Source: an uncultured Spirochaetota bacterium
GTDB taxonomy: Bacteria > Spirochaetota > Spirochaetia > SZUA-6 > CAVTHK01
NCBI GenBank assembly: GCA_963734495.1
Contig: CAVTHK010000015.1
Location: forward strand, 1-64,000
DNA: 64,000 nt
Direction: 5' to 3'
Shown here: positions 2,770-32,988 of the stretch, one piece after another
How positions within the stretch are numbered: position 1 is the stretch's first letter
Layout: each line of letters opens with the position of its first letter
Position numbers and translations under genes: made by a program
Notes under the pieces: model-generated
Database searches by the model: none
The model's input: the letters and a program-made list of their open reading frames with translations, nothing else
Told to the model about the DNA's origin: nothing

Positions 2770-2804
2770 GTCTCTATTCAACCTGTTCGACGTCCCGCCC
2801 CGAC

Positions 2805-3830: not shown

Positions 3831-5002
3831 CGAGCGCGAGCGCGCTTTCGGCGCCGAGCACCCTCTCTATGCGGCGTCCGAGCTCCACGAGGCCGGCGAT
3901 GGGCTCGTCCCGGTTGCAGCGGCCCACCTGGTCGGCGCGCCTCAGCCGCATGAGGTCCTGGATGTGCTCGTGGCCCACGCGCGCCACGAGGCGCCGCACC
4001 GCGGCGTCCTTCCACTCCTCGCTGTAGTTGAACATGTGGTGGCGGACGAGGTGCGAGACGCGCTGACGACGGCGTTCGGCAGCTTGAGGCGCCTGAGGAT
4101 CGCGTCGGCCGAGCTCGGCCGACACCCGGTCGTGGTTGTGAAATCGCGGCTCGCCCGCTTCGCCGAGCGTGAGCGTCGCCGGCTTGCCGACGTCGTGCAG
4201 GAGCGCCGCCAGCCGCAGGCCGAGGTCGGCCGGGTCGGCCGCGGCGCAGGTGTAGAGGCTGTGCATGAACACGTCGAAGCAGTGCCGCTCCCGCGTTCGA
4301 CGCCGCGCCCGTGCTCGAGCTCGGGCATGATCACGGCGAGCAGCCCGGTCTCCGCGAGGAGCTCGAAGCCCATGACCACGTGCTCCGACTGCACGATGCG
4401 CACCAGCTCGTCGCGCACGCGCTCCATCGAGACGAGCCGGGGACACGGTCGAGGGCGGCGGGGATCGCGGCCTTGGTCGCCTCGTCGATCGAGAAGCCCA
4501 GCTGCGCCGCGAGCCGGCACGCCCGCACCGGCCGCAGCCCGTCCTCCTGGAATCGCGCGTCGGGGTCCCCTATGGCCCGCACAACCTTGCGCTTCAGGTC
4601 CGCCCTCCCGCCGTGCGGGTCGAGCAGCCGGCCCGACGCCAGTCGCAGGCCATTCCGTTGATCGTGAAGTCGCGCCGGGCGAGGTCCTCGTCGATGGTCG
4701 CCGAGAAGGTCACGGCGTCGGGCCTGCGCCCGTCGCTGTAGGTGCCGTCGGAGCGGTAGGTCGTGACCTCGAAGCGCTCGCCCCGGAAGAGCACGGTCAC
4801 GGTGCCGTGTTGATCCCGGTGGGAATCACCCGGCGGAAGAGGTCCGTGACCTGCTCGGGCAGCGCGTTGGTGGCGATGTCGAAGTCGGTGGAGCTCGCGG
4901 CCGAGGATCAGGTCGCGGACGGCGCCGCCGACGAGGTGGCACTCGTAGCCCTTTTCGCGGGAGATCCTGCCGAAGCTCTTTCACCGGGGCCGGGATTCTC
5001 AT
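3826..5002 (-). CDS. cca: CCA tRNA nucleotidyltransferase / poly(A) polymerase family with HD domain (frameshifted; C-terminus cut at junction)
   Basis: [76 protein letters not shown]; ends ..AESALALGD. Confidence 0.88.
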
Positions 5003-5127
5003 GGTAACTCGATACGGGAGTCCACAGTGGGGCAGGGCAGCGCGTCCATGCGCGGCGGCGGAGCTCGGGATGCGCGCGCACCGGGACCCACGGCGGGAAG
5101 CCGCGGCGGCGACGCGACCTCGGCCAC

Positions 5128-5156
5128 AAAAAGCTCCCGGACGGCCGGGGGGCTTT
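5128..5156 (-). terminator. Probable rho-independent terminator of flaB
   Basis: Minus strand AAAGCCCCCCGG-CCGT-CCGGGAGCTTTTT: imperfect GC stem followed by a T run, ~20 nt after the flaB stop. Confidence 0.55.
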
Positions 5157-5178
5157 ACAGCCTCGAGAAACGACCGGC

Positions 5179-6051
5179 CTACTTCATGAGCTGGAGGACG
5201 GTCTGCGGCTGCGTGTTGGCCTGGGCCAGCATGGCCGTTGCGGACTGGACCAGGATCTGGTTCTTCATGTAGTTGACCATCTGCTCCGCCATGTCCGCGT
5301 CGCGGATGCGGGACTCCGAAGCCTGCAGGTTCTCGGCGCCGACCGCGAGGCCCTGCATCGCGTACTCGAGCCGGTTCTGGTACGCGCCGAGGTCCGCGCG
5401 CTGCTTGTTGACCTTGAGCAGCGCCTGGTCCAGCATGCCGATCGCCCGGTTGGCCTGGTCCGGGGTGGACAGCGAGATGAAGGTCGCCGCGGCAGGGGTC
5501 CCGTTCAGGCCCTGGATGCCGAGGCCCTGCGCCGTCATGGTCCCGATGTACGACCGCTCGCGCTGGTCCATGTTGGCGCCGATGTGGAACCACATGCTCG
5601 CGGTGACGGTGTTCTCGCCCGTCTCACGCGCGAAGCGGCCCGTCAGCAGGTTCTGGCCGTTGAACTGCGCGTGCGAGGCGATGCGGTTGACCTCGTCGAT
5701 GAGCTGCGACACCTCGACCTGGATCTGCATGCGGTCCTCGGGGGTGTAGATGCCGTTGGACGCCTGCACGGACAGCTCGCGCAGCCGCTGCAGGATGTCC
5801 TGGGTCTCCTGCAGGTACCCTTCCGTGGTCTGGATGAAGCTCACGCCGTCCTCGGCGTTCTGCTCCGCCCTGCGCAGCCCGCGGATCTGCGACCTCATCT
5901 TCTCGGACACGGCCAGGCCCGAGGCGTCGTCGCCGGCCCGGTTGATCCGCATGCCCGAGGAGAGCTTCTCCATGTCCTTGCCGACGTTCAACGTGTTGAA
6001 CTTCAGGACACGGTGAGCGAACAGGGCGCTCATGTTGTGATTGATGACCAT
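5179..6051 (-). CDS. flaB: Periplasmic flagellar filament core protein (spirochaete flagellin)
   Basis: [14 protein letters not shown]...[33 protein letters not shown]...[10 protein letters not shown]...[13 protein letters not shown]; 290 aa with short central domain as in spirochaete FlaB. Confidence 0.97.
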
Positions 6052-6093
6052 ACATCCTCCCTGATCTTCGATTCCCGGACCTCCATGTCCGGG
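6052..6093 (-). promoter_or_regulatory. CsrA-type binding hairpin plus SD-overlapping GGA in flaB leader
   Basis: mRNA CCCGGAC-AUGGAG-GUCCGGG (7-bp stem, ANGGA in loop; 6074-6093) and AGGGAGGA at the SD. Confidence 0.7.
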
Positions 6094-6109
6094 TGGGTGC
6101 CTACGTCAA

Positions 6110-6136
6110 TTGTCGGAACCCTGCGACCGCCCTTTA
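6110..6136 (-). promoter_or_regulatory. Sigma28 (FliA) promoter of flaB
   Basis: TAAA-N15-TCCGACAA versus consensus TAAA-N15-GCCGATAA. Confidence 0.8.
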
Positions 6137-6205
6137 GCGTTTCTGAGACTTGTGTGAAGAAGGCCCCCGCGGCGCGCCCTTGCCCCGCCGCCGCCGCCAT
6201 TTAGT

Positions 6206-6829
6206 ATGGCCGTGATGACCGGACTGCTTTTCACCGGCGGCGAAGGCCCGAGCCCGGAGAGACTCGCTCCGTTCCTCGAAGGCGTCGAGCTGGTGATCGC
6301 AGCCGACTCCGGACTGGAGCTGGCGAGGGCCGCGGGCGTCGACCCCGCGCTCGTGGTCGGCGACATGGACAGCCTGCGCGACCCGGGCCTGCTCGCCGCC
6401 TACGGCGAACGCGTGATGCGTTTTCCCGTCGACAAGGACGAGACCGACACCGAGATCGGCGTGCGCCTGCTTCGCGAGCGGGGCGTCGACCGGGCGATCG
6501 TGGCCGGCGGGGGCGGGGGGCGTCTGGCCCACCTGCTGGGGTTGCTCGCCCTGTTCGAGCGCCGGTTCGCGCCTTCGGTGTGGCTGACCGCGCGGGAGCA
6601 CGTGCAGGTGGTCGACGGAAGGCTCGCGCTCCCCGGATGCGTCGGTCAGACGATCTCGTTCTTTCCCGTCGGCGGGCGCGCGCTCATCAGGCGCTCGGCG
6701 GGACTCAAGTGGCCGCTGGACGGCCTGAAGTGGGGCAGGGGGGACGCCGGGGTCAGCAACCTGGCGGTCGCCGACACCGTGGAGGTCGAGCTCGCCGCCG
6801 GCCGGCTGCTGATGGTCAGGGAGTGGTAG
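6206..6829 (+). CDS. thiN: Thiamine diphosphokinase (start may be ATG 6215)
   Basis: VIAADSGL, VVGDMDS, FPVDKDETDTE, GGGGGRLAH, GLKWPL, GVSN motifs. Confidence 0.9.
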   Translation: MAVMTGLLFTGGEGPSPERLAPFLEGVELVIAADSGLELARAAGVDPALVVGDMDSLRDPGLLAAYGERVMRFPVDKDETDTEIGVRLLRERGVDRAIVAGGGGGRLAHLLGLLALFERRFAPSVWLTAREHVQVVDGRLALPGCVGQTISFFPVGGRALIRRSAGLKWPLDGLKWGRGDAGVSNLAVADTVEVELAAGRLLMVREW

Positions 6830-7307
6830 CGGCCAGCGCCTCGCGAACCCTTTCGCGGGTCACGCGAGGGTCCTCGACGAGGACGCGCTTGCCGCCGATG
6901 AGGTCGGCGATGCCGAGCTCCGAAGGGTAGCGCGGGATCACGTGGACGTGCAGGTGGCGGATGGACGCTCCGGCGGCGAGGCCCATGTTGTAGCCGATGT
7001 TGTAGCCCTGCGGCTTGTGGGTCCGGTCGAGCACCGTGAGCAGCCGCCTGACGATCTGCGAGATCCGCTGCTCCTCGTCCGCGGACAGCTCCCTCACGTC
7101 CTCGACGTGCCGGATCGGGAATACCAGCATGTGCCCCGGGTTGTACGGGTAGAGGTTGACGGCCGCCGCGACGAGGTCGTCCTGATGCACGGTGAGATCG
7201 ACGACGTCGGCGTCGCGGTCCCGCACGCGGCAGAGCAGGCACCCGGGGGCGCGCTGCGACTGGACGTACGACATCTTCTCGAAGTTGAAGAAGTAGCTGC
7301 GCTCCAC
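6816..7307 (-). CDS. HIT family hydrolase (Ap4A phosphorylase/hydrolase-like)
   Basis: CLLC, NLYPYNPGHMLVFP, GYNIGYNMGLAAGASIRHLHVHVIPR (HxHxH triad); GTG start at 7307. Confidence 0.9.
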   Translation of the reverse strand: MERSYFFNFEKMSYVQSQRAPGCLLCRVRDRDADVVDLTVHQDDLVAAAVNLYPYNPGHMLVFPIRHVEDVRELSADEEQRISQIVRRLLTVLDRTHKPQGYNIGYNMGLAAGASIRHLHVHVIPRYPSELGIADLIGGKRVLVEDPRVTRERVREALAATTP

Positions 7308-7413
7308 TGCGGGACTCCTATCTCCGGGGCAGGGACGGGTGAACCCCGCGGCTGCCTCGAACAGTATAGACCGGGACGCGACGGCAAGGGAACATCGGTA
7401 TATGATGACTAGC

Positions 7414-7755
7414 GTGTCCCGGCCCGCAGAGTCGCCGGTGCTCACGGTGGTGGGCCGTCTGTACCGGTCGTTGTTCCTGTTCTGCATCCTCGCGCTCGTC
7501 CTCTACTGGCTGGGGAATTTCCAGGAGTTCCAGGACGAGAGCCAGCTCCTGCTGCTGCGCGTCGTGCGGGTATCGGCTCTGATCGGCAGCATCCTCGGCG
7601 CCTGGTGCCTGGGGTTCAGGGTGTGGCTCCTGGTGCGCCGCGCGTCGAAGAGGGGATGGCCGCTGGTCGGAGACGGCCTCGTCTTCGTGGCCAATGTCGC
7701 CCTGGTGGCTGGAATCCAGTTCCTGTTCGCGTGGCTGCAGATCCCCGGCGCGTGA
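7414..7755 (+). CDS. Hypothetical three-TM membrane protein
   Basis: Hydrophobic stretches around LGNFQEFQDESQLLLL; GTG start 7 nt after TATGAT. Confidence 0.65.
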   Translation: MSRPAESPVLTVVGRLYRSLFLFCILALVLYWLGNFQEFQDESQLLLLRVVRVSALIGSILGAWCLGFRVWLLVRRASKRGWPLVGDGLVFVANVALVAGIQFLFAWLQIPGA

Positions 7756-7783
7756 GGCCGCGGTCCGACTTCCGTCGTTCGGT

Positions 7784-7813
7784 TTGACAGCCTGTTTTTC
7801 CCGTCGCTATACT
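7784..7813 (+). promoter_or_regulatory. Sigma70-type promoter of the Fe-ADH-glgA-map operon
   Basis: TTGACA-N18-TATACT, 9 nt before ATG 7823. Confidence 0.7.
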
Positions 7814-7822
7814 CGCGCCGTC

Positions 7823-8962
7823 ATGGTGGCGTCCCTGGAGTGTCCGCCCGCCGTCTACGTTGCGGCGGGCGCGCGCAGCCGCCTGCCGGCGCTCGCGAGA
7901 TCGCGTGCGGGACGGGTGCTCGTCGTCACCGGCCAACGCTCCCTGCGCGCGACTGGCCGGGCGGATGAGATCGCCCGATCGCTCTCCGGCATGGAGGTCG
8001 CGATCGCGGCCGCCCCGGCCGGCGAGCCGACCGTCGAAAGCGTCGACCGGATGCGGGCGTCGTGGGCTTCGTTCGCGCCCGACCTCATCGTGGGCGCCGG
8101 CGGCGGGTCGGTACTCGACATGGCCAAGGCGCTCGCCGGACTCCTGCGCTCGACGCACCCCACTCTGGACTACCTCGAGGGGATCGGGAGCGGGCGGGAG
8201 ATCGAGCCGCCCGTGGTGCCATGGATCGCGCTTCCCACGACCGCGGGCACGGGCTCGGAGGCGACCAAGAACGCGGTCATCAAGTCAGCCGCGCATCGCG
8301 TAAAGAAAAGCCTGCGCTCGCCGCTCCTCCTTCCGGTTGCAGCGATCGTGGACCCCGAGTTGGCCGTCGGCATGCCGCCCCGCCTCACGGGCGAGAGCGG
8401 GCTGGACGCGCTGACCCAGCTCGTGGAGGCGTACGTGACCGCCAAGCCCAACCCGATCGCCCGGGCGCTGATCCGCGACGCATTTCCGCGGATGCTGCGC
8501 GCGCTGCAGGTGGTCGCCGAGCGCCCGGACGACCTCGATGCCCGCGGCGACGCCGGCTACGGGGCGCTCGTCAGCGGGATCGCGCTCGCCAACTCGGGGC
8601 TCGGCGCCGTGCACGGCTTCGCATCGGGCCTGGGCGGCGCGGCCGACATCCCGCACGGCCTCATCTGCGCCTCCTTCCTCGCCCCGGTGCTGGCCGCCAA
8701 CCGGCCGGCCATCGACGCCGGCATAGGGGAGCTGATGGGTCCTCTTGCGCTCGCAGGCGACCCGGTGTCCGCCCTGATCCGGGACGTAGAGGGTCTCCTG
8801 GCGCGCTTCGGGCTCGCGGGGGCGATACGCGGCTACGGGATCGGGGCCGGGCAGATTGCTGAGATCGCGCGGCTCTCGGAGGGCTCGAGCATGTCGGGAA
8901 ACCCCGTGCGCTTGAGCCAGGAGCAGAAAGTGACGATCTTGCAGCAGGTGCTCCTGAGCTGA
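7823..8962 (+). CDS. Iron-containing alcohol dehydrogenase family protein
   Basis: GAGGGSVLDMAK, PTTAGTGSEATKNAV, DALTQLVEAY, NSGLGAVHG, PHGLIC. Confidence 0.92.
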   Translation: MVASLECPPAVYVAAGARSRLPALARSRAGRVLVVTGQRSLRATGRADEIARSLSGMEVAIAAAPAGEPTVESVDRMRASWASFAPDLIVGAGGGSVLDMAKALAGLLRSTHPTLDYLEGIGSGREIEPPVVPWIALPTTAGTGSEATKNAVIKSAAHRVKKSLRSPLLLPVAAIVDPELAVGMPPRLTGESGLDALTQLVEAYVTAKPNPIARALIRDAFPRMLRALQVVAERPDDLDARGDAGYGALVSGIALANSGLGAVHGFASGLGGAADIPHGLICASFLAPVLAANRPAIDAGIGELMGPLALAGDPVSALIRDVEGLLARFGLAGAIRGYGIGAGQIAEIARLSEGSSMSGNPVRLSQEQKVTILQQVLLS

Positions 8963-8967
8963 AGCAG

Positions 8968-10507
8968 ATGAGTGTCTGGAAGCTACAGTCGGTCTGGCAC
9001 GTGAGCCGGGAATACGAAGGGGTCGCCGAAGCCGGCGGCCTCAAGGACGTGGTCCGCGGGCTGGCCGAGGCCAGTCTCGCCCATGGGATCACGGCGACGG
9101 TGGTGCTGCCGTACTACGGCGCGGTGTCTCTCGAGGCGCGGCAGGCCGTGGCCCGCCGGTTCCGGGTCCGGGTGTGCGACTCCCGGCGGGCGCCGGCGTT
9201 CCATGACGTGGTCTTCCGCGAGACGCGCCTCCGCGGCGTGCGCGTGCTGCTGGCCGACTCGCCGATCTTCCGCGCCAAGCGCGGCATCTACGTGTACACG
9301 GACGAGGACGAGCGGGAGAACGCGGCGCTCAAGCGGGGCACAGGACACGCGGACGCTCAAGCGATGAATCTCGTGCTGCAGCACGCGGCGCTCGCGCTCG
9401 CGCGCCTCGAGCGGCCCTCGCTCATCCACTGTCACGACGGCCACGCGGCGTTCCTGCCCGCGATGGCCCGCCGCCTGTGGGGCTACCGCCGCCCTCTCTC
9501 CAAAACCGGCTTCGTGCTGACGATCCACAACGCGGGCCCCGGGTACCGGCAGGAGGTCTACGGCATGCCGTACGCGCGCGGCCTCACGCACCTCGGCCGC
9601 CGGACGCTCGCCAGGGGCGTGATCGACAACGCGGTCGAGCCGCTGCTCCTCGGGGCTCTCCATTCCGAGGTGAACACGGTCTCGCAGCCCTACGCGCGGG
9701 AGATCATGGGCCAGGAGCTCGGCCTCGCGTACGAGATGGCAGGGGTGGACCTGGGCGGAATCACCAACGGGATCGACGCCGACGAGTACGATCCGCGGCG
9801 TCCCGAGAAGTCGGGCCTTCCCTTTGCGTTCGACCCGGAGCGCGACGAGCTCGGAGGCAAGGCGCTGTGCAAGCTCGAGCTGCTCGCGCGCATCGCGCGC
9901 GGTCGCAGCGGCCGCGCGCGCCAGTTCGGTTCCGTGTCCCGGGCTGCGGAGCTGCCGCTCATCACGTACGTCGGCCGCCTCACCACCCAGAAGGGGATCA
10001 CGCACCTCTGCGAGGCGCTCAGCCAGTTGTTCGTCGAGAGGCGGGGCTTTGTCGTCGTCGTGCTGGGCGACGGGGAGCGGGAGCTCGAGAGCGAGGCTCG
10101 CCGACCTGGCGTCGTCGCGCGACGCGCACGGCCGCATGGTCTTTCTCGCCGGCTATGACCCTCAGCTCGCCAAGCTCATCTACGCGTCGGGAGACTTCAT
10201 CGTACTTCCTTCAGAATATGAGCCGTGCGGGCTTTCGGACCTCTACGCCCAGATGATGGGCAACGTTCCTGTCGTGAGGCTCGTCGGGGGGCTGGTCAAG
10301 GTCGAAGACGGGGTCACCGGCCTGGGCTATCACCACGCGGACGGGCTCGCCGCGGCGATGCGCAGGGCTCTGGACATGTGGGCCATGGAGCAGCCGGCGC
10401 TCGCGAGGATCCGCCGCGACGCGTTCAAGCGCGTGCTCGCCCGCTACACGTGGCCGCGGGTCTTCGAGTCGGGTTACCTGCCCCTCTACCAGAGGGTGGT
10501 CGGGTAG
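8968..10507 (+). CDS. glgA: Glycogen/starch synthase, GT5 (frameshift ~10095)
   Basis: EAGGLKDV, IHCHDGH, LTIHN, NTVS, GITNGID, VGRLTTQKG, then shifted-frame PSEYEPCGLSDLYA, VGGL. Confidence 0.88.
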
Positions 10508-10514
10508 GGCCGGC

Positions 10515-11312
10515 ATGCAGGCCGAGATCCCCCTCAAGACCGCCGTCGAGGTCGCGCGGATCCGGCGCAGCTGCCGCCTCGCCGAAGCGACGCTCCGGCA
10601 CCTGAGGCCTCACGTGCACGCGGGCGTGAGCACCAGGCATCTCGACAGCATCGCCGAGCGCTACATCAGGGCCGGGGGAGGCCTTCCCGCCCTCAAGGGG
10701 TATCGCGGGTTTCCCGCATCCATCTGCACCTCCGCCAACAACGTCTCGGCGCACGGCATCCCGGACGACGTCGCGCTCGAGGAAGGCGACGTGATCGGTA
10801 TCGACGTCACGGTGGCCGTGGACGGCTGGCACGGCGACGCGGCATGGACCTTCGTCGTGGGCAGGGCAGGCGAGGACGTGCTGCGGCTGGTCCGCGCGGC
10901 CTGGCGCGCCTGCCTCGCGGGGCTCGTGTCGGTAAAGCCGGGCGGCCGCCTCGGCGACGTGGGCTACGCCATCAGCCGCGCCGCGGGCAGGCTCGGCTGC
11001 AGCGTCATCCGCGACTACGTCGGCCACGGCATCGGCCGCGCGATGCACGAGGAGCCGCGGATCGCCAACTTCGGCCGGCGGGGGCAGGGGCTGCGCATCG
11101 TGCCGGGGATGGTCTTTACCGTGGAGCCCATGGTGAACCTCGGCGGCTCGGACGTGAAGGTCATGGACGACGGCTGGACCGTCGTCACGGCCGACGGGAG
11201 CCTCTCGGCGCAGTTCGAGCATACCGTCGCCGTCTATCGCGAAGGCATCGAGATCCTCACGCTTTCCGACACGCGGCTCAAGGATTGTCTTGACGAGCCA
11301 CCGTACTTCTAA
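10515..11312 (+). CDS. map: Type I methionine aminopeptidase
   Basis: GYRGFPASICTSANN, HGIP, GDVIGID, GWHGD, YVGHGIGRAMHEEP, FTVEPMVN, SAQFEHTV. Confidence 0.96.
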   Translation: MQAEIPLKTAVEVARIRRSCRLAEATLRHLRPHVHAGVSTRHLDSIAERYIRAGGGLPALKGYRGFPASICTSANNVSAHGIPDDVALEEGDVIGIDVTVAVDGWHGDAAWTFVVGRAGEDVLRLVRAAWRACLAGLVSVKPGGRLGDVGYAISRAAGRLGCSVIRDYVGHGIGRAMHEEPRIANFGRRGQGLRIVPGMVFTVEPMVNLGGSDVKVMDDGWTVVTADGSLSAQFEHTVAVYREGIEILTLSDTRLKDCLDEPPYF

Positions 11313-11318
11313 TAGCCT
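11290..11318 (+). promoter_or_regulatory. Sigma70-type promoter upstream of tRNA-Thr
   Basis: TTGACG-N17-TAGCCT. Confidence 0.5.
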
Positions 11319-11357
11319 TTCTCGTGCGTGGGCGGGCGTCGAGCGCCGCCTTCGTAT

Positions 11358-11414
11358 GCCACCTTAGCTCAGTCGGCAGAGCACGTGACTTGTAATCTCG
11401 GGGTCGCCGGTTCG
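11358..11414 (+). tRNA. tRNA-Thr(TGT), 5' portion only, broken in the T-loop
   Basis: GCCACCT-TA-GCTC-AGTCGGCA-GAGC-A-CGTGA-CTTGTAA-TCTCG-GGGTC-GCCGG-TTCG then unrelated sequence; anticodon TGT at 11391-11393. Confidence 0.85.
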
Positions 11415-11418
11415 CCCG

Positions 11419-11832
11419 CTATCGCCTGTACAGCATGGCGTAGGCGCTCCCAGCCGGATCGATACGCGGCGGATAGGCTGCAGGATGCGCATTTGTCTCC
11501 AGCACGTTTCCGCCACTACTGATCCGCGCTATTCCATAGAGGAAGCCGAACAATCCCGAATCAACGGTAAACCTGTAGAAGTTCCCGTCCTGGTGGGTGA
11601 TGCTCCACGAATCGGTTTCTAGCGGAACGACATCGCTTTCGTTTTCGAAGAAGCTCACCTCGGTTGCGGTGAAGACCGCCTTCCCGGGAGGCCCGCCGCC
11701 ATGGCCATTGTAGGCTGGATTCGCCCACGTGCCCAGATACTCATAGATGGTCTCTTCGTCGGGAACGCAGCCGGTCACCAGCGATACAACGGCCCCCGCC
11801 ACGAGAACCCATCGGAACGCAATTCGGCTCAT
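11419..11832 (-). CDS. Hypothetical lipoprotein
   Basis: MSRIAFRWVLVAGAVVSLVTGC lipobox-like signal; mature part YLGTWANPAYNG... Confidence 0.7.
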   Translation of the reverse strand: MSRIAFRWVLVAGAVVSLVTGCVPDEETIYEYLGTWANPAYNGHGGGPPGKAVFTATEVSFFENESDVVPLETDSWSITHQDGNFYRFTVDSGLFGFLYGIARISSGGNVLETNAHPAAYPPRIDPAGSAYAMLYRR

Positions 11833-11835
11833 ACG

Positions 11836-11850
11836 CCCCCCCCCCCCCCC
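11836..11850 (-). repeat. G15 homopolymer immediately upstream of lipoprotein start
   Basis: 15 C on the + strand; minus strand reads G15-CGT-ATG. Confidence 0.85.
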
Positions 11851-12197
11851 GCGGTCTTCGCATCTTCCGACAAAAGGCTCCTCCGGCAGCCTGGTTTGAA
11901 ACAACCGTGTTGTCGCCGAGATGCATGAGCCGACTATGGTGCCGATGCAGACGATCGAGGTTCGACCCCTTCGAGCAACGGCTGCCAGATGAAGTATAGG
12001 ACAGAGAGCGCGAAGCCCGCCAGGGCCGAAGCCGCCCTCAGCCGGAGCCCCCGACCGACTAAGCGCTGATAGACTCATGCCAGGTTGTCTCGAGGGGCCG
12101 CGCCGCGGAAGCACCAGCCGGTGAGGGGATAGGTCACGGCCCTGCTGCGGCGGGCTTGTGCGAGGGGCCTTGCCACCTTGAGCGGGAGTAAAGCAGT

Positions 12198-12872
12198 CCT
12201 GCCACCTCGGTCGTCATCGAGCGATACCCAGCGACACTCCAGCTCACCCTGGTTGCGCTCGTGTGGTCCATCGGGCTTGCCTTGGTGCTTGGCACGGTTG
12301 CGGCGACCAGGCGCGGAACCTTTTCCGAGCGGTTCATCATGAGAGTCGCCCTTCTGGGGCAGACCGCGCCCAGCTTCTGGGTGGGCATTATGCTGATGCT
12401 GCTGTTTGCCGTCAGGCTCAGGTGGTTGCCTCCCACCGGAAGGTCGGGTATTGCTTCGATGATCATGCCGGCATTCGTACTGGGCCTGAATCCCTTTGCC
12501 CGCAACATCCGGCTCGTGCGCTCCTGCCTCATGGAGGTCATGGGTCAGGACTACATCACGACGGCCAGATCTAAGGGACTTGCGCAACGGCGGGTCATCA
12601 CACGCCATGCCTTCAAGAACGCGTCGATCCCACTGCTGACGATCCTCGGGCTGCAGCTGCCTGCCGCCCTCGGGGGCGCAGTAATAGCCGAGACGATATT
12701 CGCATGGCCGGGCATCGGCCGCCTGATGATCCAGGCGATCGGGTACAGGGACTTTCCTGTCGTGCAGTGCGCGGTGTTCTTCACGTCGATCATGTTTGTG
12801 GCGATCAACCTCATGATCGACATCCTCTATTCGGTGATCGACCCGCGGATCAAGGCAGCGTCGGAAGAGTAG
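12198..12872 (+). pseudogene. Dipeptide/oligopeptide ABC permease (DppB-like), 5'-truncated
   Basis: VIERYPATLQL...PSFWVGIML...EVMGQDYITTARSKGL...HAFKNA...ETIFAWPGIG...DPRIK; in-frame stop just upstream, N-terminal part absent. Confidence 0.8.
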
Positions 12873-12895
12873 GCTACCACTCGGAGGTGAATCAG

Positions 12896-13200
12896 GTGAG
12901 CGGCGCCGCACAGCGAACAGACACACCTCGGACAGCAAAAGGTGGGATACTTGCGTGGCTGACCGAGCGGCGCAGGCATAACGCGAGCCTGTTCGGCGTG
13001 GCAGTGCTCGCGGGTGTCGTGCTGATGGCCGTCTTCGCGCCGCTGCTTGCGCCGCACGATCCAGAGGTGCAGGACCTGAAGAACAGGCTCGCGCCGCCTG
13101 TCTGGTCTTCACAGGGAAGCTGGAGTCACGTGCTAGGCACCGACCAGCTCGGCCGGGACGTGCTCAGCCGCATCATCTACGGTTCGCGCATTTCTGCCTT
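12896..13200 (+). pseudogene. Dipeptide/oligopeptide ABC permease (DppC-like), 3'-truncated
   Basis: GGAGG SD; FAPLLAPHDP...HVLGTDQLGRDVLSRIIYGSRIS, after which similarity stops. Confidence 0.8.
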
Positions 13201-13300
13201 TGGACTGAGACAATACGATACGATATCAACCGAAGGTATCGACACCATGGGGCATATGATACGCAAGGCGCGTCGTAACTCCTGTGGAGCTACTTCGCAC

Positions 13301-13320
13301 TTCGATTCCGGGAGGTGGCT
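13301..13320 (+). other. Displaced 3' end of tRNA-Thr (att-like fragment)
   Basis: TTCGATT-CCGGG-AGGTGGC-T; AGGTGGC pairs perfectly with the acceptor 5' strand GCCACCT at 11358. Confidence 0.8.
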
Positions 13321-13524
13321 GTCTTAGGTGACCGAGAGGCGGGTCGAGGAGTACCTCCTCAAGCTTCGCACGCAGGGCGCCAGAAGCCAGGACGCACTGA
13401 AGGCTCTGCGCGAATGTGCGAAGGACTTCTTCATCGGGGAGTGTTGCCCGCACTGCTTGACGGTGCGCGGCTCAGGGGGCCAGCTCGGGCCTGAGCACGT
13501 GGAGCATCTGCGGAGCATTCTCGA

Positions 13525-13551
13525 CTTGACGGCGTTCCGAGTGCAACTCAG
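13525..13551 (+). repeat. 27-nt direct repeat copy 1 (promoter-like)
   Basis: CTTGACGGCGTTCCGAGTGCAACTCAG; 24/27 identical to 14366-14392; reads TTGACG-N17-CAGACT. Confidence 0.75.
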
Positions 13552-13574
13552 ACTACAGTCAAGGAGGCGAGAGT

Positions 13575-14285
13575 GTGCTGACGCGCTTGATGATCACCGC
13601 GTTCTCTCTGGCAGTCCTCGAAATCGCTGCCGTAGCTGGGCCCCTTGAAGATGCGAAAGCCGCTTACGATAGAGGCTACTACAGCACGGCTTTGACGCTC
13701 TGGCGTCCCCTTGCCGATCAGGGCGACGCGACAGCCCAAGAGAACCTCGGCAACATGTACGCCAACGGCAGGGGTGTGCCGAAGGACGACGGCGAAGCGG
13801 TGAAGTGGTATCGCAAGGCGGCGGAGCAGTCGTCTGCCTCGGCTCAGACCAACCTCGCCTATATGCACGCCAACGGCCGGGGCGTGCCCAAGGACTACAC
13901 TCAGGCGTTCATGTGGTACAGAAAGGCTGCGGATCAGGGATTTGCGGAAGCTCAACTCAGCCTTGGCATCATGTACAGCGACGGCCTGGGCGTGTCCAAG
14001 GACTACGGCGAGGCGCTCAAGTGGTTCCTCCTGGCCGCGGCGCAGGGCCATATACGCGCCCAGTACTCCCTCGGCGTCATGTACACCAACGGCCTGGGTG
14101 TGCCCCAGGACTACGCAGAAGCCTACAAGTGGTTCAGGATCCTCTACCCCAAGCTCCCGTTGGGGCAAGACAAGGACAACGTGTATAGGATCCTGGATAG
14201 CCTCAGTAAGAAAATGACCCGCGAGCAGTTCGCCGACGCCCAGAAACGCGCTGACGATTGGGACCGAGCACACGCGGCACGGTAG
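13575..14285 (+). CDS. Secreted Sel1-like repeat protein
   Basis: AAGGAGG SD, signal peptide, AGPLEDAKAAY, tandem AQxNLGxMYANGRGVPKD...WYRKAAEQG repeats. Confidence 0.93.
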   Translation: MLTRLMITAFSLAVLEIAAVAGPLEDAKAAYDRGYYSTALTLWRPLADQGDATAQENLGNMYANGRGVPKDDGEAVKWYRKAAEQSSASAQTNLAYMHANGRGVPKDYTQAFMWYRKAADQGFAEAQLSLGIMYSDGLGVSKDYGEALKWFLLAAAQGHIRAQYSLGVMYTNGLGVPQDYAEAYKWFRILYPKLPLGQDKDNVYRILDSLSKKMTREQFADAQKRADDWDRAHAAR

Positions 14286-14365
14286 CAGCTCACGGCTCGA
14301 GCAGTCGCGTCGGTTTGATTGCCGGGCCGAAACGCTGTCTCGCGCATGCGCGTGCCTGAGAACGG

Positions 14366-14392
14366 CTTGACCGCGTTCCGACTGCAACCCAG
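14366..14392 (+). repeat. 27-nt direct repeat copy 2
   Basis: CTTGACCGCGTTCCGACTGCAACCCAG. Confidence 0.75.
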
Positions 14393-14739
14393 TTATTGGG
14401 TCCACTTCTTTCTTTCCTTGATTGAGCCCGAACCCGCCTACTCGGTAGTGGCGGCGATCGATTCGAGTACGCGGACGTATCGCGACGGGATTCAAGTGGA
14501 AACCGCGGCTGTTACCTGCGTGCAAATGAAAAGCGGCGCGGTTAGGGATGCGAGACAGGCGACGAAACCCCGACAGCCCGAGGCGATTGGACCCGCGTCG
14601 CCGCGATAGGTCGTCGGCAGCGGAATATCGGCAAGGGCAGAATCGCGTCTGCTGGGCAAGATGGTCCGAGGTAGCGTTGGTGCGGCCGCGCACGCCCCCT
14701 GGCCGCCATGACGAGCTCAGGAGCGTCCTTCTCCTGGCG

Positions 14740-15415
14740 CTACGGCGCAGCGCTCGGCGTAGATTTGTCCACGGCCGCCGCGATGGCGTCGCGCAGTTTC
14801 CGCACCTGATCCTCGCTCAAATCAAAGGTCAGGTTGCCGGTTTGGCGCGTGTTGCTGGAACCCGCGACCGCGGGCGGGAACACCGTCTTGAAGGATTTCC
14901 CGGCGTTAGTCACGGAGAATACGACAACGAAGGTGACATCCCTGAGCGGTCGATACCTGTCGTTGCCTTCCCTCAAGTCAAGAGTGCCGGAATCCAGCTC
15001 GTAACTGAGCATCCTGGTCGGCGGAAAGGACTTCGGGTCCGCCGCGATAAAGTCGTCCACGGCGTCGAGGAGCTGGCGGGCCTGATCCATGGTCAACGAT
15101 GAAGTCTGCGTCCAGGTCGTAGTCGTTGATGGTCCCAGCCCTGCCCTTGATGAAGACGTTGGCCGCGCGGAGGCTGAAGAGTACGGCCTGGGTTCCGCCA
15201 TCCCGGAAGACCTCTCGCGAGTAGAACACTCCGATGACAGTGCGGTTCCAACCGGGGCCGACGACGTTCACTTCGCTCACCAGATCGATGCTCGAAGCAA
15301 TGGCCCGTCCGCCGCGTATCTCCGGAGCTTTGGACTGGTAGATCGGGTTGTGCACTGTGGCGCATGAGGCCAGGATCGCCAGACACACAGGAAGAATCGC
15401 ACGCGCGGCAATCAT
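14740..15415 (-). CDS. Hypothetical lipoprotein (one frameshift ~15095)
   Basis: MIAARAILPVCLAILASC lipobox; ORFs 14978-15415 and 14740-15201 join into one ~225-aa protein. Confidence 0.65.
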
Positions 15416-15544
15416 CTCGGCTTTCCCTTTCCGCGGCGCCCCCTTTCCGGGAGCGGAGCCACAGTCTCAGCCGCGAGAACTACGCGGGTCAAGCCCAGTC
15501 AGGCCCGCCTGCGCCTCCCGATCGCCGCTGACCGGCCTGCTGCA

Positions 15545-15578
15545 TGGCTACCGCGGTATGCAGGGTGGATACCGCGGT
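15545..15578 (+). promoter_or_regulatory. Candidate enhancer (UAS) for a sigma54 activator
   Basis: TGGCTACCGCGGT / TGGATACCGCGGT repeat at 21-bp spacing; first copy contains palindrome TACCGCGGTA; ~130-160 bp upstream of the -24 box. Confidence 0.5.
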
Positions 15579-15707
15579 GAGCTGACGGTGCACCCCCGGA
15601 GCTCAGGCGGCCGGCCCGGTCGCGAAGCGCCCCGGACCTGCTCTCAGCAATTTGTTTCCAGACAAAGAATAGAGGACGCATCTTAGCCCGCGGAATAACG
15701 CGCGGCG

Positions 15708-15723
15708 TGGCACGCGTATTGCA
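15708..15723 (+). promoter_or_regulatory. Sigma54 (-24/-12) promoter of sugar ABC operon
   Basis: TGGCAC-GCGTA-TTGCA, exact consensus spacing. Confidence 0.85.
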
Positions 15724-15770
15724 CTTCTGCTCCCGTTCTCCAACGTCTTTCGGTTTTCGGGAGGTTGCTC

Positions 15771-16772
15771 ATGAAAAGAGCTGGCAAGGTGATCCTTGCG
15801 GCGCTGGTGGTGCTGCTGGTTGCGGCGCCAGTCTTCGGGTCCCCGTCCGCAGAGACGAAGACCGCGAAAAAGGCCGTCACCATGGCCTTCATGCCCGGCA
15901 TCGCCGACCCCTTCTACTTCACCATGGAACGCGGCATCCGTGCCAAGGCCAAAGAGCTGGGCGTCAACCTGATCGTCGGCGACTACCCCACGACGTGGGG
16001 CCCGGAGGCTCAGGTTCCCATCCTCCAGGCGATGATGGCACGAGGCGGGATCGACATGCTTCTCATCGCGCCGACCTCGGTGGACGCGCTGATCGCGCCG
16101 CTCAAGAAGATCTACGACAGCGGTGTGCAGATCATCACGGTGGACACCTTTCTCGGCGACGGCGACTACTCCAAGACCAGCAACTACTCCTTCCCCCTGG
16201 CCTACATCGGGAGCGACAACGAGCTGGGCGGCCAGCAGGTGGCCGAGCACCTGGCCAAGCTGATCGGCGAGAAGGGCAAGGTCTTCTGCGAGTCCACCAA
16301 CCCGGACACTTCGTCGGTTGTCGGCCGCGTCAACGGCTTCAAGAAGGGCATCGCCGAGTTCCCGAACGTGCAGCTCGTCGGGGTGGACTACTGCCTGGAC
16401 GTGCAGCAGACCGCCATGCAGCAGGTTTCCGCCGCCCTCCAGAAGAACCCCGGCATCGTCGGCATCTTCGGAGTCAACGTGTTCAGCGCCCAGGGGGCTT
16501 ACCAGGCCGTGGTCAACGCGGGGCTCACGGGCGCCGTGAAGATCGCTTCCTGGGACGCCACCGAGACGCTCATCCAGGCGCTCAAGGCAGGCCAGGTCGA
16601 CCTCGTGCTCGCCCAGAAGCCGGCGGAGATCGGATCGCTCTCCGTGGACTGGGGCTACAAGTATCTGACCGCCGGGACGCCGATTCCCAAGAAGGTCATC
16701 CCGGGGTTCGAGTTCTTCACCAGAGACAACGTCAACAACGCCGACATGCAGCAGTGGATCTACAAGAAGTAG
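15771..16772 (+). CDS. Sugar ABC transporter substrate-binding protein (RbsB/CUT2 type)
   Basis: Signal peptide; DPFYFTMERG, IITVDT, YIGSDNELGG, RVNGF, LAQKPAEIG. Confidence 0.92.
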   Translation: MKRAGKVILAALVVLLVAAPVFGSPSAETKTAKKAVTMAFMPGIADPFYFTMERGIRAKAKELGVNLIVGDYPTTWGPEAQVPILQAMMARGGIDMLLIAPTSVDALIAPLKKIYDSGVQIITVDTFLGDGDYSKTSNYSFPLAYIGSDNELGGQQVAEHLAKLIGEKGKVFCESTNPDTSSVVGRVNGFKKGIAEFPNVQLVGVDYCLDVQQTAMQQVSAALQKNPGIVGIFGVNVFSAQGAYQAVVNAGLTGAVKIASWDATETLIQALKAGQVDLVLAQKPAEIGSLSVDWGYKYLTAGTPIPKKVIPGFEFFTRDNVNNADMQQWIYKK

Positions 16773-16885
16773 CCGCAACCGGCAGCCGGCTGTCGCTTGA
16801 CCCGCGACGGCCGGCCGCGCCGGTGCGTTTGCATCGGCGGGGGTCCCCACTTACAATCGACGCGATCGCAGGGAAGGGGCTGACC

Positions 16886-17986
16886 ATGCAGGCGAGCGCC
16901 GGAGCTCTGACCAACGGCAACGCGAGGCCCGCTGTCCTCTCGGTTCTGGGCAGGAACTGGGCGCTGCTGTTCCTGATCGGGGCGACCTTCATCTTCTCGT
17001 TCACGGGCAGGAACTTTTTCACCCTGGCCAACATCCAGAACATCATCTACGCCGCCACCATCTACCTGTTGCTGGCGAGCGCCGAGACCTTTGTGATCAT
17101 CACGGGCGGCATCGACCTGTCGGTGGGCTACGTCATGGGCCTTTCGTCGGTGGTCTGCGCCGGGGTCATGCGGAACCTGTGGTACGTGGACTACGGCATC
17201 CAATGGCCCGCCCTTGCTGCTGTGATCGCCGGGATCGCCGTGGCTATCGTGTCGAGCCTCGCTTGCGGCCTGGCCAGCGGCGTGCTCGTGGCCCGCTACC
17301 GGGTGCCGCCTTTTATCGCGACGCTCGGCGTGCTGGGGGCGGCCTACGGGATCACGCTCCATGCGAGCGGCGGCGGCTTCCCGATCGCGTTCCTGCCTGC
17401 CGGGTTGCGCGAGATCGGCAACGGCTATGTGTACTACTTCAACCCGGTCATCGGGAAATCCCGTTTCTTCGCGGCGCCCGCGGGAACGGCCGACACCCAG
17501 ATCCGGGACCTGGTCCGCATCTTTCCGAACGCGTTGATCTTTACCATCGTCGTCCTGGCCGTGCTGTGGTACCTGCTGCGGCACACCCGCTTCGGCCGCC
17601 ACACCTACGCGATCGGCGGGAGCATGGACGCGGGCGTGAGGGCCGGGATCGACACCAAGGGACACCTGGCGCGGATCTACGTGCTTTCCGCCTTCCTGGC
17701 GGGCGTGGCCGGAGTCGTCAATGTCCTCCAGACCGGCACGGGCAACTTCACGCCCCTGGGCGCGAACTACGAGCTTTTCGCCATCGCCGCGGTCATCATC
17801 GGGGGCGCCAGTCTGCTGGGCGGCAAGGGGCGGATCATGGCCTCAGCGGTGGGGGTGCTCATCCTGCAGGTTCTGGACAACGGCCTGAACCTTTCGGGAG
17901 TGGAGTCCTTCTACCGCTACATCGCCACCGGCGTCGTTCTCATCGTGGCGGTCGTGATCGACCAGCTCTTCCCGGACCTGTTCTGA
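16886..17986 (+). CDS. Sugar ABC transporter permease (RbsC type)
   Basis: FVIITGGIDLSVG, PPFIATLG, TRFGRHTYAIGG, YELFAIAAVIIGGASLLGGKG. Confidence 0.92.
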   Translation: MQASAGALTNGNARPAVLSVLGRNWALLFLIGATFIFSFTGRNFFTLANIQNIIYAATIYLLLASAETFVIITGGIDLSVGYVMGLSSVVCAGVMRNLWYVDYGIQWPALAAVIAGIAVAIVSSLACGLASGVLVARYRVPPFIATLGVLGAAYGITLHASGGGFPIAFLPAGLREIGNGYVYYFNPVIGKSRFFAAPAGTADTQIRDLVRIFPNALIFTIVVLAVLWYLLRHTRFGRHTYAIGGSMDAGVRAGIDTKGHLARIYVLSAFLAGVAGVVNVLQTGTGNFTPLGANYELFAIAAVIIGGASLLGGKGRIMASAVGVLILQVLDNGLNLSGVESFYRYIATGVVLIVAVVIDQLFPDLF

Positions 17987-18003
17987 AGACCAAGGAGTAG
18001 GAG

Positions 18004-19056
18004 ATGACAAGGCAAAGCCGACTCGCCCTCTTCCTGGGGCAGCGCTGGGCCGTCGTGTTCCTGATCGCCGAGATCGCCGCCTTCGCGGTCCTGGGGGCCG
18101 GGTTCTTCAGCCTCAACGGATTCCAGATCGTGCTGTTCTACGGCACCTCGCTGTTTCTCCTATCTACCGCGGAGACCTTTGTGATCGTCACGGGCGGGGT
18201 CGACCTGTCCGTCGGCTACCTCATGGGCTTCGCCACCATCGTGTCGGCCAAGATCGTCGCGGCGCTCAGCCGGGTGGGGGTGGCGCCGGCTTCGGCGATC
18301 CTGCTGGGCGTGCTGATCACCCTGGTGATCGGGCTTCTTCCGGGCCTCCTGAGCGGCCTGCTGGTGGGGACCCTGCGTGTGCCGGCCTTCCTGGCGACCT
18401 TCTCTACCGGCGGGATCATCTACGGGACCTCTCTGCTGATGATCGGGGGCGTGGCGGCCAAGGACGTGCCGATCCTGGCCAACGCCGTCGGCAACAGCTA
18501 CCTCGCGTACTACGTCAGGGGGGGAGGGTTCTCGCTGTTCGTTCGGCCGGAGGTGGCGCGCGGCACCCCCGTGCTGGAGCTCGTGCCGACCATGGTGGTG
18601 TTGACGGCGATCTTTGTCGCCATCGGCGCCTTCGTCCTCAAGCGCACCCGCTTCGGGCGCCACTCCTACGCCATCGGCGGCAACATCGATGCCGCCCTGC
18701 GGGCGGGCATCAACACCAGGCGCCATCTTCTGTTCAGCTATATGATCTCCGCGCTTTTCGCCAGTCTCGCGGGCATCATCTACATGCTGGAGTACGTGAC
18801 GGGCAAGGCTGACGCGGGGGTCTCCTTTCTCCTGGACTCGATCGTGGGCGTGGTGATCGGCGGGGCGAGCCTCTACGGGGGCAGCGGCACCGTCTGGGGC
18901 ACGATCCTCGGATGCCTGATCCTTTCGGTACTCGAGACCGGGCTGCGCATGTCAGGCGTGCAGACCTTCGACAAGTTCATCGCGGTCGGGGCGATCCTGA
19001 TTTTCGCGGTGCTGATCGACCAGTTCTTCCCGGAGCTGATCCACAAGGAGGACTAA
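18004..19056 (+). CDS. Sugar ABC transporter permease (RbsC type), second paralog
   Basis: FVIVTGGVDLSVG, TRFGRHSYAIGGN, VIGGASLYGGSG. Confidence 0.92.
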   Translation: MTRQSRLALFLGQRWAVVFLIAEIAAFAVLGAGFFSLNGFQIVLFYGTSLFLLSTAETFVIVTGGVDLSVGYLMGFATIVSAKIVAALSRVGVAPASAILLGVLITLVIGLLPGLLSGLLVGTLRVPAFLATFSTGGIIYGTSLLMIGGVAAKDVPILANAVGNSYLAYYVRGGGFSLFVRPEVARGTPVLELVPTMVVLTAIFVAIGAFVLKRTRFGRHSYAIGGNIDAALRAGINTRRHLLFSYMISALFASLAGIIYMLEYVTGKADAGVSFLLDSIVGVVIGGASLYGGSGTVWGTILGCLILSVLETGLRMSGVQTFDKFIAVGAILIFAVLIDQFFPELIHKED

Positions 19057-19808
19057 TGGCGTACCTGCTCGAGGTGCGAAACGTCGTCAAGCGCTTTGGC
19101 GGCCTCACGGCCGTGGACAATGTGAGCATGGGCGTGAACGCCGGGGAGGTCGTCGGGCTCCTTGGGGACAACGGCGCCGGGAAGTCCACCCTCATCAAGG
19201 TCATCTCAGGCGTCTACCGGGCTGACGAGGGTGAGATCTTCTACAAGGGCGAGGAGGCTCACATCGAGACACCTATGGACGCCCTGGCCATGGGGATCGA
19301 GACTATCTATCAGGACCTGGCTCTCGCCGAGAACCTGGACACCTCCGCCAACATTTTCCTGGGCCGCGAAAGGATGAAGAAGTGGCTCGGCCTGATTCCG
19401 GTGCTGGATCTCGAAGCGATGCGCGTCGAGAGCCGCAAGGTGCTGGAAAAGCTCGACATCGAGATCCCGTCTCTCAAGAATCGCATCCGCGCGCTTTCCG
19501 GAGGCCAGCGCCAGGCGGTGGCCATCTCGCGCTCGATCTACTGGGACGCCAAGTTCATCATCATGGACGAGCCGACCGCGGCCCTCGGAGTCGCGGAGCA
19601 GAAGAAGGTCCTGGAGACGGTGAACCTGCTCAAGTCCCACGGGATCGGGGTCATCGTGATCAGTCACCAGATGCACGACGTCTTCTCCGTAGCGGACCGC
19701 CTGGTGATCATGCGCCGCGGCCGCAAGGTGGCCGAGCGCCTGACGAGGGAGACGAACGCCGACGAGATCGTGAGCCTGATCGTCGGAGCGGAGACGGTCG
19801 AGAAATAG
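19056..19808 (+). CDS. Sugar ABC transporter ATP-binding protein (single NBD)
   Basis: GDNGAGKST, LSGGQRQ, IIMDEPTAALG, ISH. Confidence 0.94.
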   Translation: MAYLLEVRNVVKRFGGLTAVDNVSMGVNAGEVVGLLGDNGAGKSTLIKVISGVYRADEGEIFYKGEEAHIETPMDALAMGIETIYQDLALAENLDTSANIFLGRERMKKWLGLIPVLDLEAMRVESRKVLEKLDIEIPSLKNRIRALSGGQRQAVAISRSIYWDAKFIIMDEPTAALGVAEQKKVLETVNLLKSHGIGVIVISHQMHDVFSVADRLVIMRRGRKVAERLTRETNADEIVSLIVGAETVEK

Positions 19809-19833
19809 GGCCAGAGGGGGTCGGCCGGCGCGA

Positions 19834-23381
<3,548 letters not shown>

Positions 23382-23424
23382 TCGGGAGCCTGTCGGACTT
23401 GCGAAGGCCGAGGAAGCAAGTTGC

Positions 23425-23454
23425 TTGACGCCCGTTCCCGCTCTCGGGCAGACT
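23425..23454 (+). promoter_or_regulatory. Candidate sigma70-type promoter for small ORF
   Basis: TTGACG-N18-CAGACT. Confidence 0.45.
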
Positions 23455-23486
23455 GAGCGCCGCTGATCGACTCAGGGAGGGAAACC

Positions 23487-23633
23487 GTGTCGGAGAGAAA
23501 TGGTGACAAGGCCCGGTTCGGGCGAGAACGCAAGAAGAAAGCGCTGCATCGGCAGCGCCTTCACCAATTGCTGACCGCGGCGAAGACGAAACAACCCGCG
23601 CCCGCGGGCGCCAGGAAAGCCAAAGAGAAATAA
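23487..23633 (+). CDS. Small basic hypothetical protein, 48 aa (below ORF-track cutoff)
   Basis: AGGGAGG SD, GTG start; MSERNGDKARFGRERKKKALHRQRLHQLLTAAKTKQPAPAGARKAKEK*. Confidence 0.65.
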   Translation: MSERNGDKARFGRERKKKALHRQRLHQLLTAAKTKQPAPAGARKAKEK

Positions 23634-32830: not shown

Positions 32831-32842
32831 TTGCGCGCCTAT

Positions 32843-32925
32843 GGGGAGATTCCCGAGTGGTCAAAGGGGGCAGACTGTAAATCTGTTGGCTTTCGCCTTC
32901 GAAGGTTCGAATCCTTCTCTCCCCA
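32843..32925 (+). tRNA. tRNA-Tyr(GTA), no encoded CCA
   Basis: GGGGAGA/TCTCCCC acceptor, CCGAGTGGTCAAAGG D-arm, GCAGA-CTGTAAA-TCTGT anticodon arm, long variable arm, GAAGG-TTCGAAT-CCTTC. Confidence 0.97.
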
Positions 32926-32988
32926 ATCGCATTCCTTGAGAGGCCGCCAGGCGCCTCGGGTCGGACGCCCGGCGAGGAGCTTGCCGGC

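Follow-up and report, generated by a model that had tools for sequence, protein, structure and literature searches.

The DNA analysed here, referred to as the window, is a stretch of 64,000 nt comprising positions 1–64000 of contig C15 of bin G000, a bin of 5.38 Mb in 18 contigs with a completeness of 83% and a contamination of 4.7%. It holds a tRNA-Thr(TGT) gene that is split in the T loop by 1,886 nt of other DNA. The 5′ part (tRNA positions 1–57) occupies 11358..11414 on the forward strand, shows a G at the T-stem base and ends with GCCGG-TTCG in the T loop. The 3′ part, the last 20 nt of the tRNA, lies at 13301..13320 on the same strand; its sequence, TTCG-ATT-CCGGG-AGGTGGC-T, comprises the T loop, the 3′ strand of the T stem, the 3′ acceptor strand and the discriminator base. 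TTCG is the only sequence present at both junctions. We studied the locus with ARAGORN, Rfam covariance models (cmscan), Pfam, blastn, tblastn, shuffle controls and a scripted in silico join, and compared it with genomes of the same order, coded G001 (same genus), G009, G013, G016, G025 and G028; order-wide protein comparisons covered 92 genomes, this bin and 91 others.

As it stands, the gene is not recognised as a contiguous tRNA cloverleaf: ARAGORN makes no call at 11358, its sole call in the window being tRNA-Tyr at 32842–32926, and the Rfam tRNA model matches 11365–11419 at 25 bits without reaching its gathering score of 29. When positions 11330–11414 and 13305–13350 are joined by script, ARAGORN reports a 73-nt tRNA-Thr(tgt), which has a perfect acceptor stem, a T·T mismatch in the anticodon stem and a G:G pair at the T-stem base. 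A preliminary description of this DNA had proposed such a split gene, with TTCG at both ends and a full cloverleaf with these mismatches on joining, and both the sequence and the tRNA finder run on the joined sequence, a check that it had suggested, bear this out. The two mismatches are both present as described and differ in kind. The T·T is not damage but native to the gene, being found in all seven intact orthologues compared (those of contig C4 of the same bin, G001, G009, G016, G028, G025 and G013). The G:G is specific to the broken copy, and the intact genes with the same CCGG/CCGGG stem (C4, G001 and G013) have a C in place of the G at the T-stem base.

The 3′ piece, taken as 19 nt, is single in the window, and matches with up to three mismatches were obtained in none of 100 shuffles. 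The whole bin contains one other exact copy of it, inside an intact tRNA on contig C4.

The interrupting DNA

The insert (11415..13300) has a GC content of 0.616, compared with 0.697 upstream, and shows no recombinase, terminal inverted repeats or repeat family. An intact open reading frame (ORF) on the reverse strand, at 11419..11832, encodes a putative lipoprotein of 137 aa; a signal peptide and a lipobox-like motif, LVTGC, were read from the translation rather than called by a tool. The ORF stops only 4 nt away from the tRNA break. The protein matches no Pfam family; among the 91 other genomes of the order, 8 have homologues, at 27–47% identity. Three nucleotides upstream of the lipoprotein ATG lies a run of 15 C on the forward strand (11836..11850), which is poly-G on the lipoprotein strand. 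This is the longest homopolymer of the whole bin, in which only six runs reach 9 nt or more and the runner-up has 10 nt. Unless it is a sequencing artefact, the run is a candidate tract for phase variation by slipped-strand mispairing. It is bracketed by an inverted repeat of 23 nt (11810–11832 and 11925–11947, 78% complementary), which holds the first codons of the lipoprotein gene and may have arisen by chance.

The remaining genes of the insert are two permease remnants on the forward strand. The first, of dppB/oppB type (12192..12872; BPD_transp_1, E 1e-38), is truncated at its 5′ end: in tblastn it aligns to residues 112–340 of a 342-aa paralogue frame, a stop codon stands immediately upstream, and the first ~85–110 residues are missing. 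Across the 92 genomes of the order, where full frames have about 308 aa, its best match reaches 47% identity, and the stump is therefore foreign. The second remnant, of dppC/oppC type (12896..13195; OppC_N, E 1.2e-11), is truncated at its 3′ end, and only residues 17–93 of a 301-aa paralogue are matched in tblastn. Between it and the 3′ tRNA piece lies a spacer of 100 nt with a GC content of 0.51 (13201..13300), possibly a remnant of an attP arm.

Pfam searches of the insert ORFs returned permease domains only, with neither a recombinase nor a transposase domain among them. The terminal inverted repeats of the insert are at chance level (their score was equalled in 89 of 500 shuffles), its ends share no direct repeat longer than TTCG, and the rest of the bin holds no second copy of any part of it, distant dpp paralogues aside. 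Because its genes are truncated, repeats and a recombinase are missing and the dppB stump is foreign, we take the insert to be the remnant of a once-longer stretch of foreign DNA that has suffered at least two internal deletions, rather than a compact mobile unit.

Three other kinds of element were considered and rejected. The chance-level inverted repeats and the lack of a transposase domain speak against an insertion sequence or transposon. A group I or group II intron was sought with cmscan over 10800–13900 (4,227 families, E up to 10), and the only match was to the tRNA. Finally, a split tRNA joined in trans would have its pieces brought together by the flanks, whose duplex energy of −33.2 compares with a shuffle mean of −33.7 and is matched or bettered in 258 of 500 shuffles.

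The intact copy and the duplicate on contig C4

ARAGORN made 55 calls in the whole bin, including tRNA-Thr(tgt) at C4 c[1141–1213] and at C3:38620–38694. The C4 gene is intact, identical to that of G001, and one base different from the 57 nt in the window (C instead of G at the T-stem base). The preliminary description had taken the ACA decoder to be lost, which is wrong for the bin as a whole, since this intact tRNA-Thr(TGT) is present; the bin-wide search for a second copy was its own proposal, and it had named an intact second copy, such as this one, among the findings that would refute it.

The tRNA is the end of a longer duplication. A segment of 7.6 kb on the forward strand of the window (3826..11414) corresponds in reverse to C4:8737–1157 and carries a truncated cca′, flaB, genes for thiamin pyrophosphokinase, a HIT protein and an iron-dependent alcohol dehydrogenase (Fe-ADH), glgA, map and the 5′ part of the tRNA. 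These genes were assigned by Pfam, and the cca′ copy was traced by tblastn with the cca of C4. In blastn the two copies share 90.6% identity along 7,614 nt, with the alignment stopping exactly at 11414, at the TTCG; that a diverged duplicate of 7.6 kb should end precisely in the T loop is the one feature of the locus that is explained only in part. The identity is a mosaic that ranges from 76 to 100% by interval, with about 45 indels between the copies: it is 91–97% at 3.8–5.4 kb of C15, 99–100% at 5.4–6.9 kb (flaB and neighbours), 76–85% at 7.2–8.9 kb and 81–92% up to the tRNA. Both copies are equidistant from G001 (66–89%). The tract of 99–100% identity (5392–6941) spans the flaB flagellin gene and the thiamin pyrophosphokinase region; it looks as if the copies had recently undergone gene conversion or exchanged DNA here.

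The left side of the C4 segment is collinear with G001 and G009 over more than 12 kb (cca, rnc, acpP, rpmF, coaD and beyond), and C4 therefore holds the orthologous tRNA-Thr gene. On C15, the DNA to the left of 3826 is not collinear with either genome and contains diverged fragments of recG, rsmD and coaD, of which native copies lie on C10 and C4; the recG of C15 has about 68% nucleotide identity to that of C10. A junction near 3826–3866 truncates both recG and the cca′ beside it; positions 1–3866 of the window may be acquired DNA or, failing that, one more chimeric end of a contig. The gene for the CCA-adding enzyme is intact on C4 (501 aa) and is cut on C15 at residue 434 of 501, at the edge of the duplicate, with three frame changes. 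For map, thiamin pyrophosphokinase and Fe-ADH, the better reading frames are those of C15. Given the ~45 indels between the copies and the error-prone bin, such frameshifts are weak evidence.

We lean towards a single genome with a split ancestral locus, in which C4 would carry the live tRNA with the left flank, and the decaying duplicate, the acquired DNA and the right flank would be on C15. This is favoured because the left and right flanks are each single-copy in the bin, and because the truncated cca would be hard to tolerate in an organism of its own, the tRNA genes compared encoding no CCA. The tract of 99–100% identity would then be gene conversion. Alternatively, C4 and C15 may belong to two sister populations that were binned together.

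Surroundings of the broken gene

The GC content of the window is 0.697 at 3826–11357, falls to 0.616 in the insert, is 0.644 at 13321–23500 and returns to 0.688 beyond ~23.5 kb, so that the drop begins exactly at the T-loop break. The second lower-GC block (13321..23500) encodes a Sel1-repeat protein, a sugar ABC transporter, a histidine kinase and a sigma-54 regulator; it contains no recombinase and has no collinear counterpart in G001. The Sel1-repeat gene has an internal tandem duplication (13743–14135, 71% identity, 108-nt offset), as is expected for repeat proteins.

A domain scan of 42 ORFs from window positions 489–4024 and 13327–35710 gave no recombinase domain. The bin has 19 matches to PF00589, none of them on C15 or C4, and tblastn with the integrase of G028 left C15 unmatched. 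The preliminary description was thus right to call the insert integrase-less.

Further downstream, the DNA at 26.7–33.3 kb has normal GC and matches other contigs of G001 with 70–79% identity. A tRNA-Tyr(GTA) gene follows on the forward strand at 32842..32926 (ARAGORN), 21.4 kb after the tRNA-Thr piece, and synteny with G009 and G016 resumes at 33477–34412. We considered the whole 21.4 kb between the tRNA-Thr piece and tRNA-Tyr as one island, a reading that we rejected on account of the G001 matches and normal GC at 26.7–33.3 kb; because of these matches, only ~11.4–23.5 kb looks acquired in this lineage. In the G001-like part, at 27906–29394 and 29738–30771, lie a GH39 glycosidase that is split over two ORFs and a solute-binding protein of which only the C-terminal part is left; these are frameshifts or pseudogenes, or else assembly indels.

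The locus in related genomes

The gene for methionine aminopeptidase, map (10515..11312, forward strand; Peptidase_M24, E 9.5e-45), is the conserved upstream neighbour of tRNA-Thr(TGT) in the order, as judged by synteny with G009, G016 and G001. In G009 and G016 the order is Fe-ADH, glgA, map, tRNA-Thr(TGT), tRNA-Tyr(GTA) and the homologues of window 33477–34412, with tRNA-Tyr only 107–158 nt after tRNA-Thr. When the map–tRNA-Thr locus was compared as the preliminary description had suggested, the tRNA-Thr(TGT) gene after map proved intact in all six relatives, and what varies is the DNA downstream. In G001 the intact gene is followed by sequence unrelated to the window, and the downstream DNA differs among C15, C4 and G001.

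In G028, the same gene carries a complete island. The tRNA-Thr(TGT) gene is intact and has next to it a 375-aa tyrosine integrase (PF00589, 55.4 bits) within an interval of 17.2 kb (G028:C16:8608–25852) that is bounded by an exact 42-nt repeat. The repeat equals tRNA positions 32–73 and starts in the anticodon loop, and tRNA-Tyr lies 4 kb beyond it. tRNA-Thr(TGT) is thus a genuine island site in the order.

Origin of the locus

With moderate confidence, we read the locus as a dead, redundant copy of tRNA-Thr(UGU) that was killed at an island attachment site, in its T loop and at the edge of horizontally acquired DNA, the island having later been gutted by deletions. What is observed agrees with this reading: both pieces of the tRNA, a shift in composition at the break, gene stumps, the lack of a recombinase, the intact copy on C4 and, in a relative, an island that uses this tRNA. 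A tyrosine-integrase island would have inserted at the T loop of this gene, and the 20 nt at 13301–13320 would be the displaced 3′ tDNA fragment left by integration; running from the first T-loop base to the discriminator, they have the form of such a fragment. Deletions at ~12190, at ~13195 and at the left end would then have gutted the island and removed the integrase together with the regenerated 3′ part of the tRNA. Left over would be the orphan lipoprotein gene, the two permease stumps and the arm-like 100-nt spacer, and the second lower-GC block behind the fragment would fit tandem accretion of islands. We infer the order of these events, as well as the loss of the left end by deletion. 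The loss of the tRNA copy would be tolerated because an intact orthologous tRNA-Thr(UGU) gene is present on C4.

Such events have precedents. In the Islander report (PMC4383910), integration leaves a tDNA plus a tDNA fragment, and attP in the T-stem region is given for 1,836 of 3,919 islands and ‘damage’ for 148; PMC5704250 describes the decay of islands to integrase-less remnants, and accretion. The preliminary description had offered three readings: an element excised in trans, a decayed island with a deleted left end, and an assembly collapse. The second fits best, given the composition boundary at the break, the displaced-fragment form of the 3′ piece and the truncated genes.

Several observations weigh against a decayed island. 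No integrase remnant was detected in the insert or anywhere on C15, and the far end of the 13321–23500 block carries no second displaced tRNA fragment. If C4 and C15 represent sister populations, the redundancy of tRNA-Thr is unproven for the C15 organism, their presence in one cell being what we infer. The single-base difference in the T stem and the frameshifts may be sequencing errors, because base-level errors are frequent in the bin, as seen in the many 1-nt indels between the C4 and C15 duplicates. Moreover, the end of the 5′ part and the start of the 3′ part fall within the same 4 nt, where a random left-end deletion would land about 1 in 10 times by a rough estimate; for such a geometry, a direct insertion or a deletion made by a recombinase is a somewhat better fit. 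In the first of these, foreign DNA would have been inserted into the T loop of a tRNA copy that was redundant already, the tRNA would never have been regenerated, and the inserted DNA would have decayed later; we think this unlikely, if the least so of the alternatives. An integrase could have acted at a secondary site that has nothing but TTCG in common with its attP overlap; alternatively, a 4-nt microhomology could have served illegitimate recombination. Such an insertion would account for two pieces that sum to exactly one tRNA with only TTCG doubled, as from a staggered cut or a short crossover core, and the redundant intact copy on C4 would lift selection against it. However, the overlap of a tyrosine recombinase is usually 6–8 nt and only 4 nt are shared here, neither a recombinase nor a transposase was found, and the terminal inverted repeats are at chance. 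In addition, the DNA before the 3′ piece (GC 0.616) and that after it (0.644) are equally poor in GC, which suggests that the piece lies inside acquired DNA and not at its outer edge.

That the structure of C15 is a misjoin of DNA from different metagenome populations, so that no molecule has it, strikes us as improbable. The quality of the bin lends this some weight: apart from its incompleteness and contamination, contig C3 is chimeric and C14 is a variant of a C2 segment (see below), and the left end of C15 (1–3825) is odd, with its diverged recG, rsmD and coaD fragments. Yet a misjoin leads from A to B and not from A through B to A′, and here the exact remainder of the tRNA follows 1,886 nt after the exit from the T loop. 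Past the lower-GC block, C15 regains genus-like DNA with 74–79% matches in G001 and then reaches tRNA-Tyr and the downstream synteny of G009 and G016, and the insert resembles nothing else in the bin beyond distant dpp paralogues. The suspicion of an assembly collapse in the preliminary description is thus justified in that the bin does contain a chimeric contig, and is countered by an arrangement of 5′ part, insert and exact 3′ remainder that misjoining would hardly produce. The headline proposal of that description, a tRNA switch operated by excision in trans, fares worse. Here the insert would be an active integrase-less element, similar to a cis-mobilizable element (CIME), that a recombinase encoded elsewhere excises, rebuilding the tRNA and thereby switching a tRNA-Thr(UGU) copy at the DNA level; we consider this very improbable, and scarcely credible that the insert is a non-autonomous passenger removed precisely at the TTCG core, with the cell toggling a second tRNA-Thr(UGU) gene. 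We know of no regulatory interruption of a tRNA gene by such a passenger, a point on which we made no literature search. Excision at TTCG in silico does rebuild a tRNA that ARAGORN accepts, the 19 PF00589 matches on other contigs show that the bin is rich in tyrosine recombinases, and integrase-less elements that kept attL and attR are described in PMC5704250. On the other hand, the rebuilt tRNA has a G:G at the T-stem base where C4, G001 and G013 pair C with G, the att repeats amount to a core of at most 4 nt with arm-type and inverted repeats not above chance, and the truncated genes indicate decay and not a maintained element. C15 carries no recombinase, the bin holds no other copy of the insert, and no empty-site sequence was found in the collections and runs described next.

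Exact junction patterns gave no match in the public contig collections scanned, namely the string 13301–13333 in metagenome_contigs and 13295–13319 in metagenome_contigs and genome_contigs, from which records of the genome itself may have been excluded. Two wetland runs (word share 0.06; 85% likeness) yielded short contigs that mostly represent conserved genes of other organisms, and none extends across either junction. Among them, a low-depth contig of 228 nt covers 13308–13548 and starts inside the 3′ tRNA piece, and a contig of 151 nt matches 13208–13283 with different flanks.

Comparison with known systems

The locus resembles the tRNA islands of the Islander type in having a tRNA as its target, a break in the T loop, a 20-nt 3′ tDNA fragment in direct orientation and a shift of composition at the break, and in that the same tRNA hosts the complete island of G028. 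Measured by the signature of such islands, the displaced end fragment in the same orientation is present, as 13301–13320 are the last 20 nt of the tRNA. Foreign composition and content are present as well (GC 0.616 versus 0.697, dppB identity of 47% or less, no collinear counterpart in G001). The regenerated full-length tDNA is absent, with only positions 1–57 standing at 11358–11414, and so is an integrase gene inside the interval. The locus thus differs from Islander-type islands in an unrestored tRNA, in the missing integrase and in a content of gene stumps, and its interval of 1.9 kb lies below the 2-kb filter given in PMC4383910.

CIMEs and tandem accretion (Pavlovic 2004 and Bellanger 2011, as cited in PMC5704250) offer a second comparison. 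Here too, a remnant without an integrase has an att-like site on one side and more acquired DNA on the other, and a tDNA fragment parts two lower-GC blocks, as in accreted arrays. CIMEs, however, keep both att sites as a full direct repeat; at our locus the junctions share only the 4 nt of TTCG, the left site is destroyed, and no related element was found in the bin.

Elements that interrupt a gene and restore it on excision include skin in the sigK gene of Bacillus subtilis and the comK prophage of Listeria. As in these cases, the insert splits a gene that its precise removal restores, here in silico. In contrast to the decayed mosaic in a redundant tRNA copy found here, for which no excision product was seen, skin and the comK prophage are intact, conserved units that carry or depend on a dedicated recombinase. 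Two-piece tRNAs are also known from the split tRNA genes of Nanoarchaeum and from tRNA introns, which share with our locus that the tRNA is encoded in two pieces. The split here differs in lying in the T loop, with a 4-nt duplication and without complementarity of the flanks.

The locus looks like an ordinary island scar rather than a switch. It adds little new biology beyond one more tRNA gene that served as a landing site and a redundant tRNA copy lost there, and it illustrates that the border of an old island may still be recognised by a tDNA fragment when no integrase is present.

Contig quality of the bin

The first part of contig C3 (C3:1–50516) has a GC content of ~0.43 and carries a Thr-Tyr-Gly-Thr tRNA cluster, tuf, tRNA-Trp, nusG, rplA, and rpoB in several frames. 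rpoC breaks off in domain 5, at the very point where GC rises abruptly to 0.6–0.75, and the tRNA cluster is absent from the relatives searched. C3 is thus demonstrably chimeric and looks like a fusion of the high-GC genome with DNA from an organism of low GC. The third tRNA-Thr(TGT) of the bin, at C3:38620–38694, was rejected as a second copy of the genome's own, since it lies within this 43%-GC chimeric block. A degraded integrase with five stops is found at C3:37642–38133.

Contig C14 (16,970 nt) is over its whole length 95–97% identical to C2:142424–159359, and the bin therefore holds strain-level alternative contigs. Since one of its contigs is chimeric, another is a strain variant and indels are numerous, the bin needs care, and oddities at the level of single genes need read support before they are interpreted. 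A further deviation in composition is a 45-kb stretch of C9 (C9:375000–420000) with a GC content of 0.51–0.56 in a genome of 0.68; a prophage, a large island or other foreign DNA may account for it.

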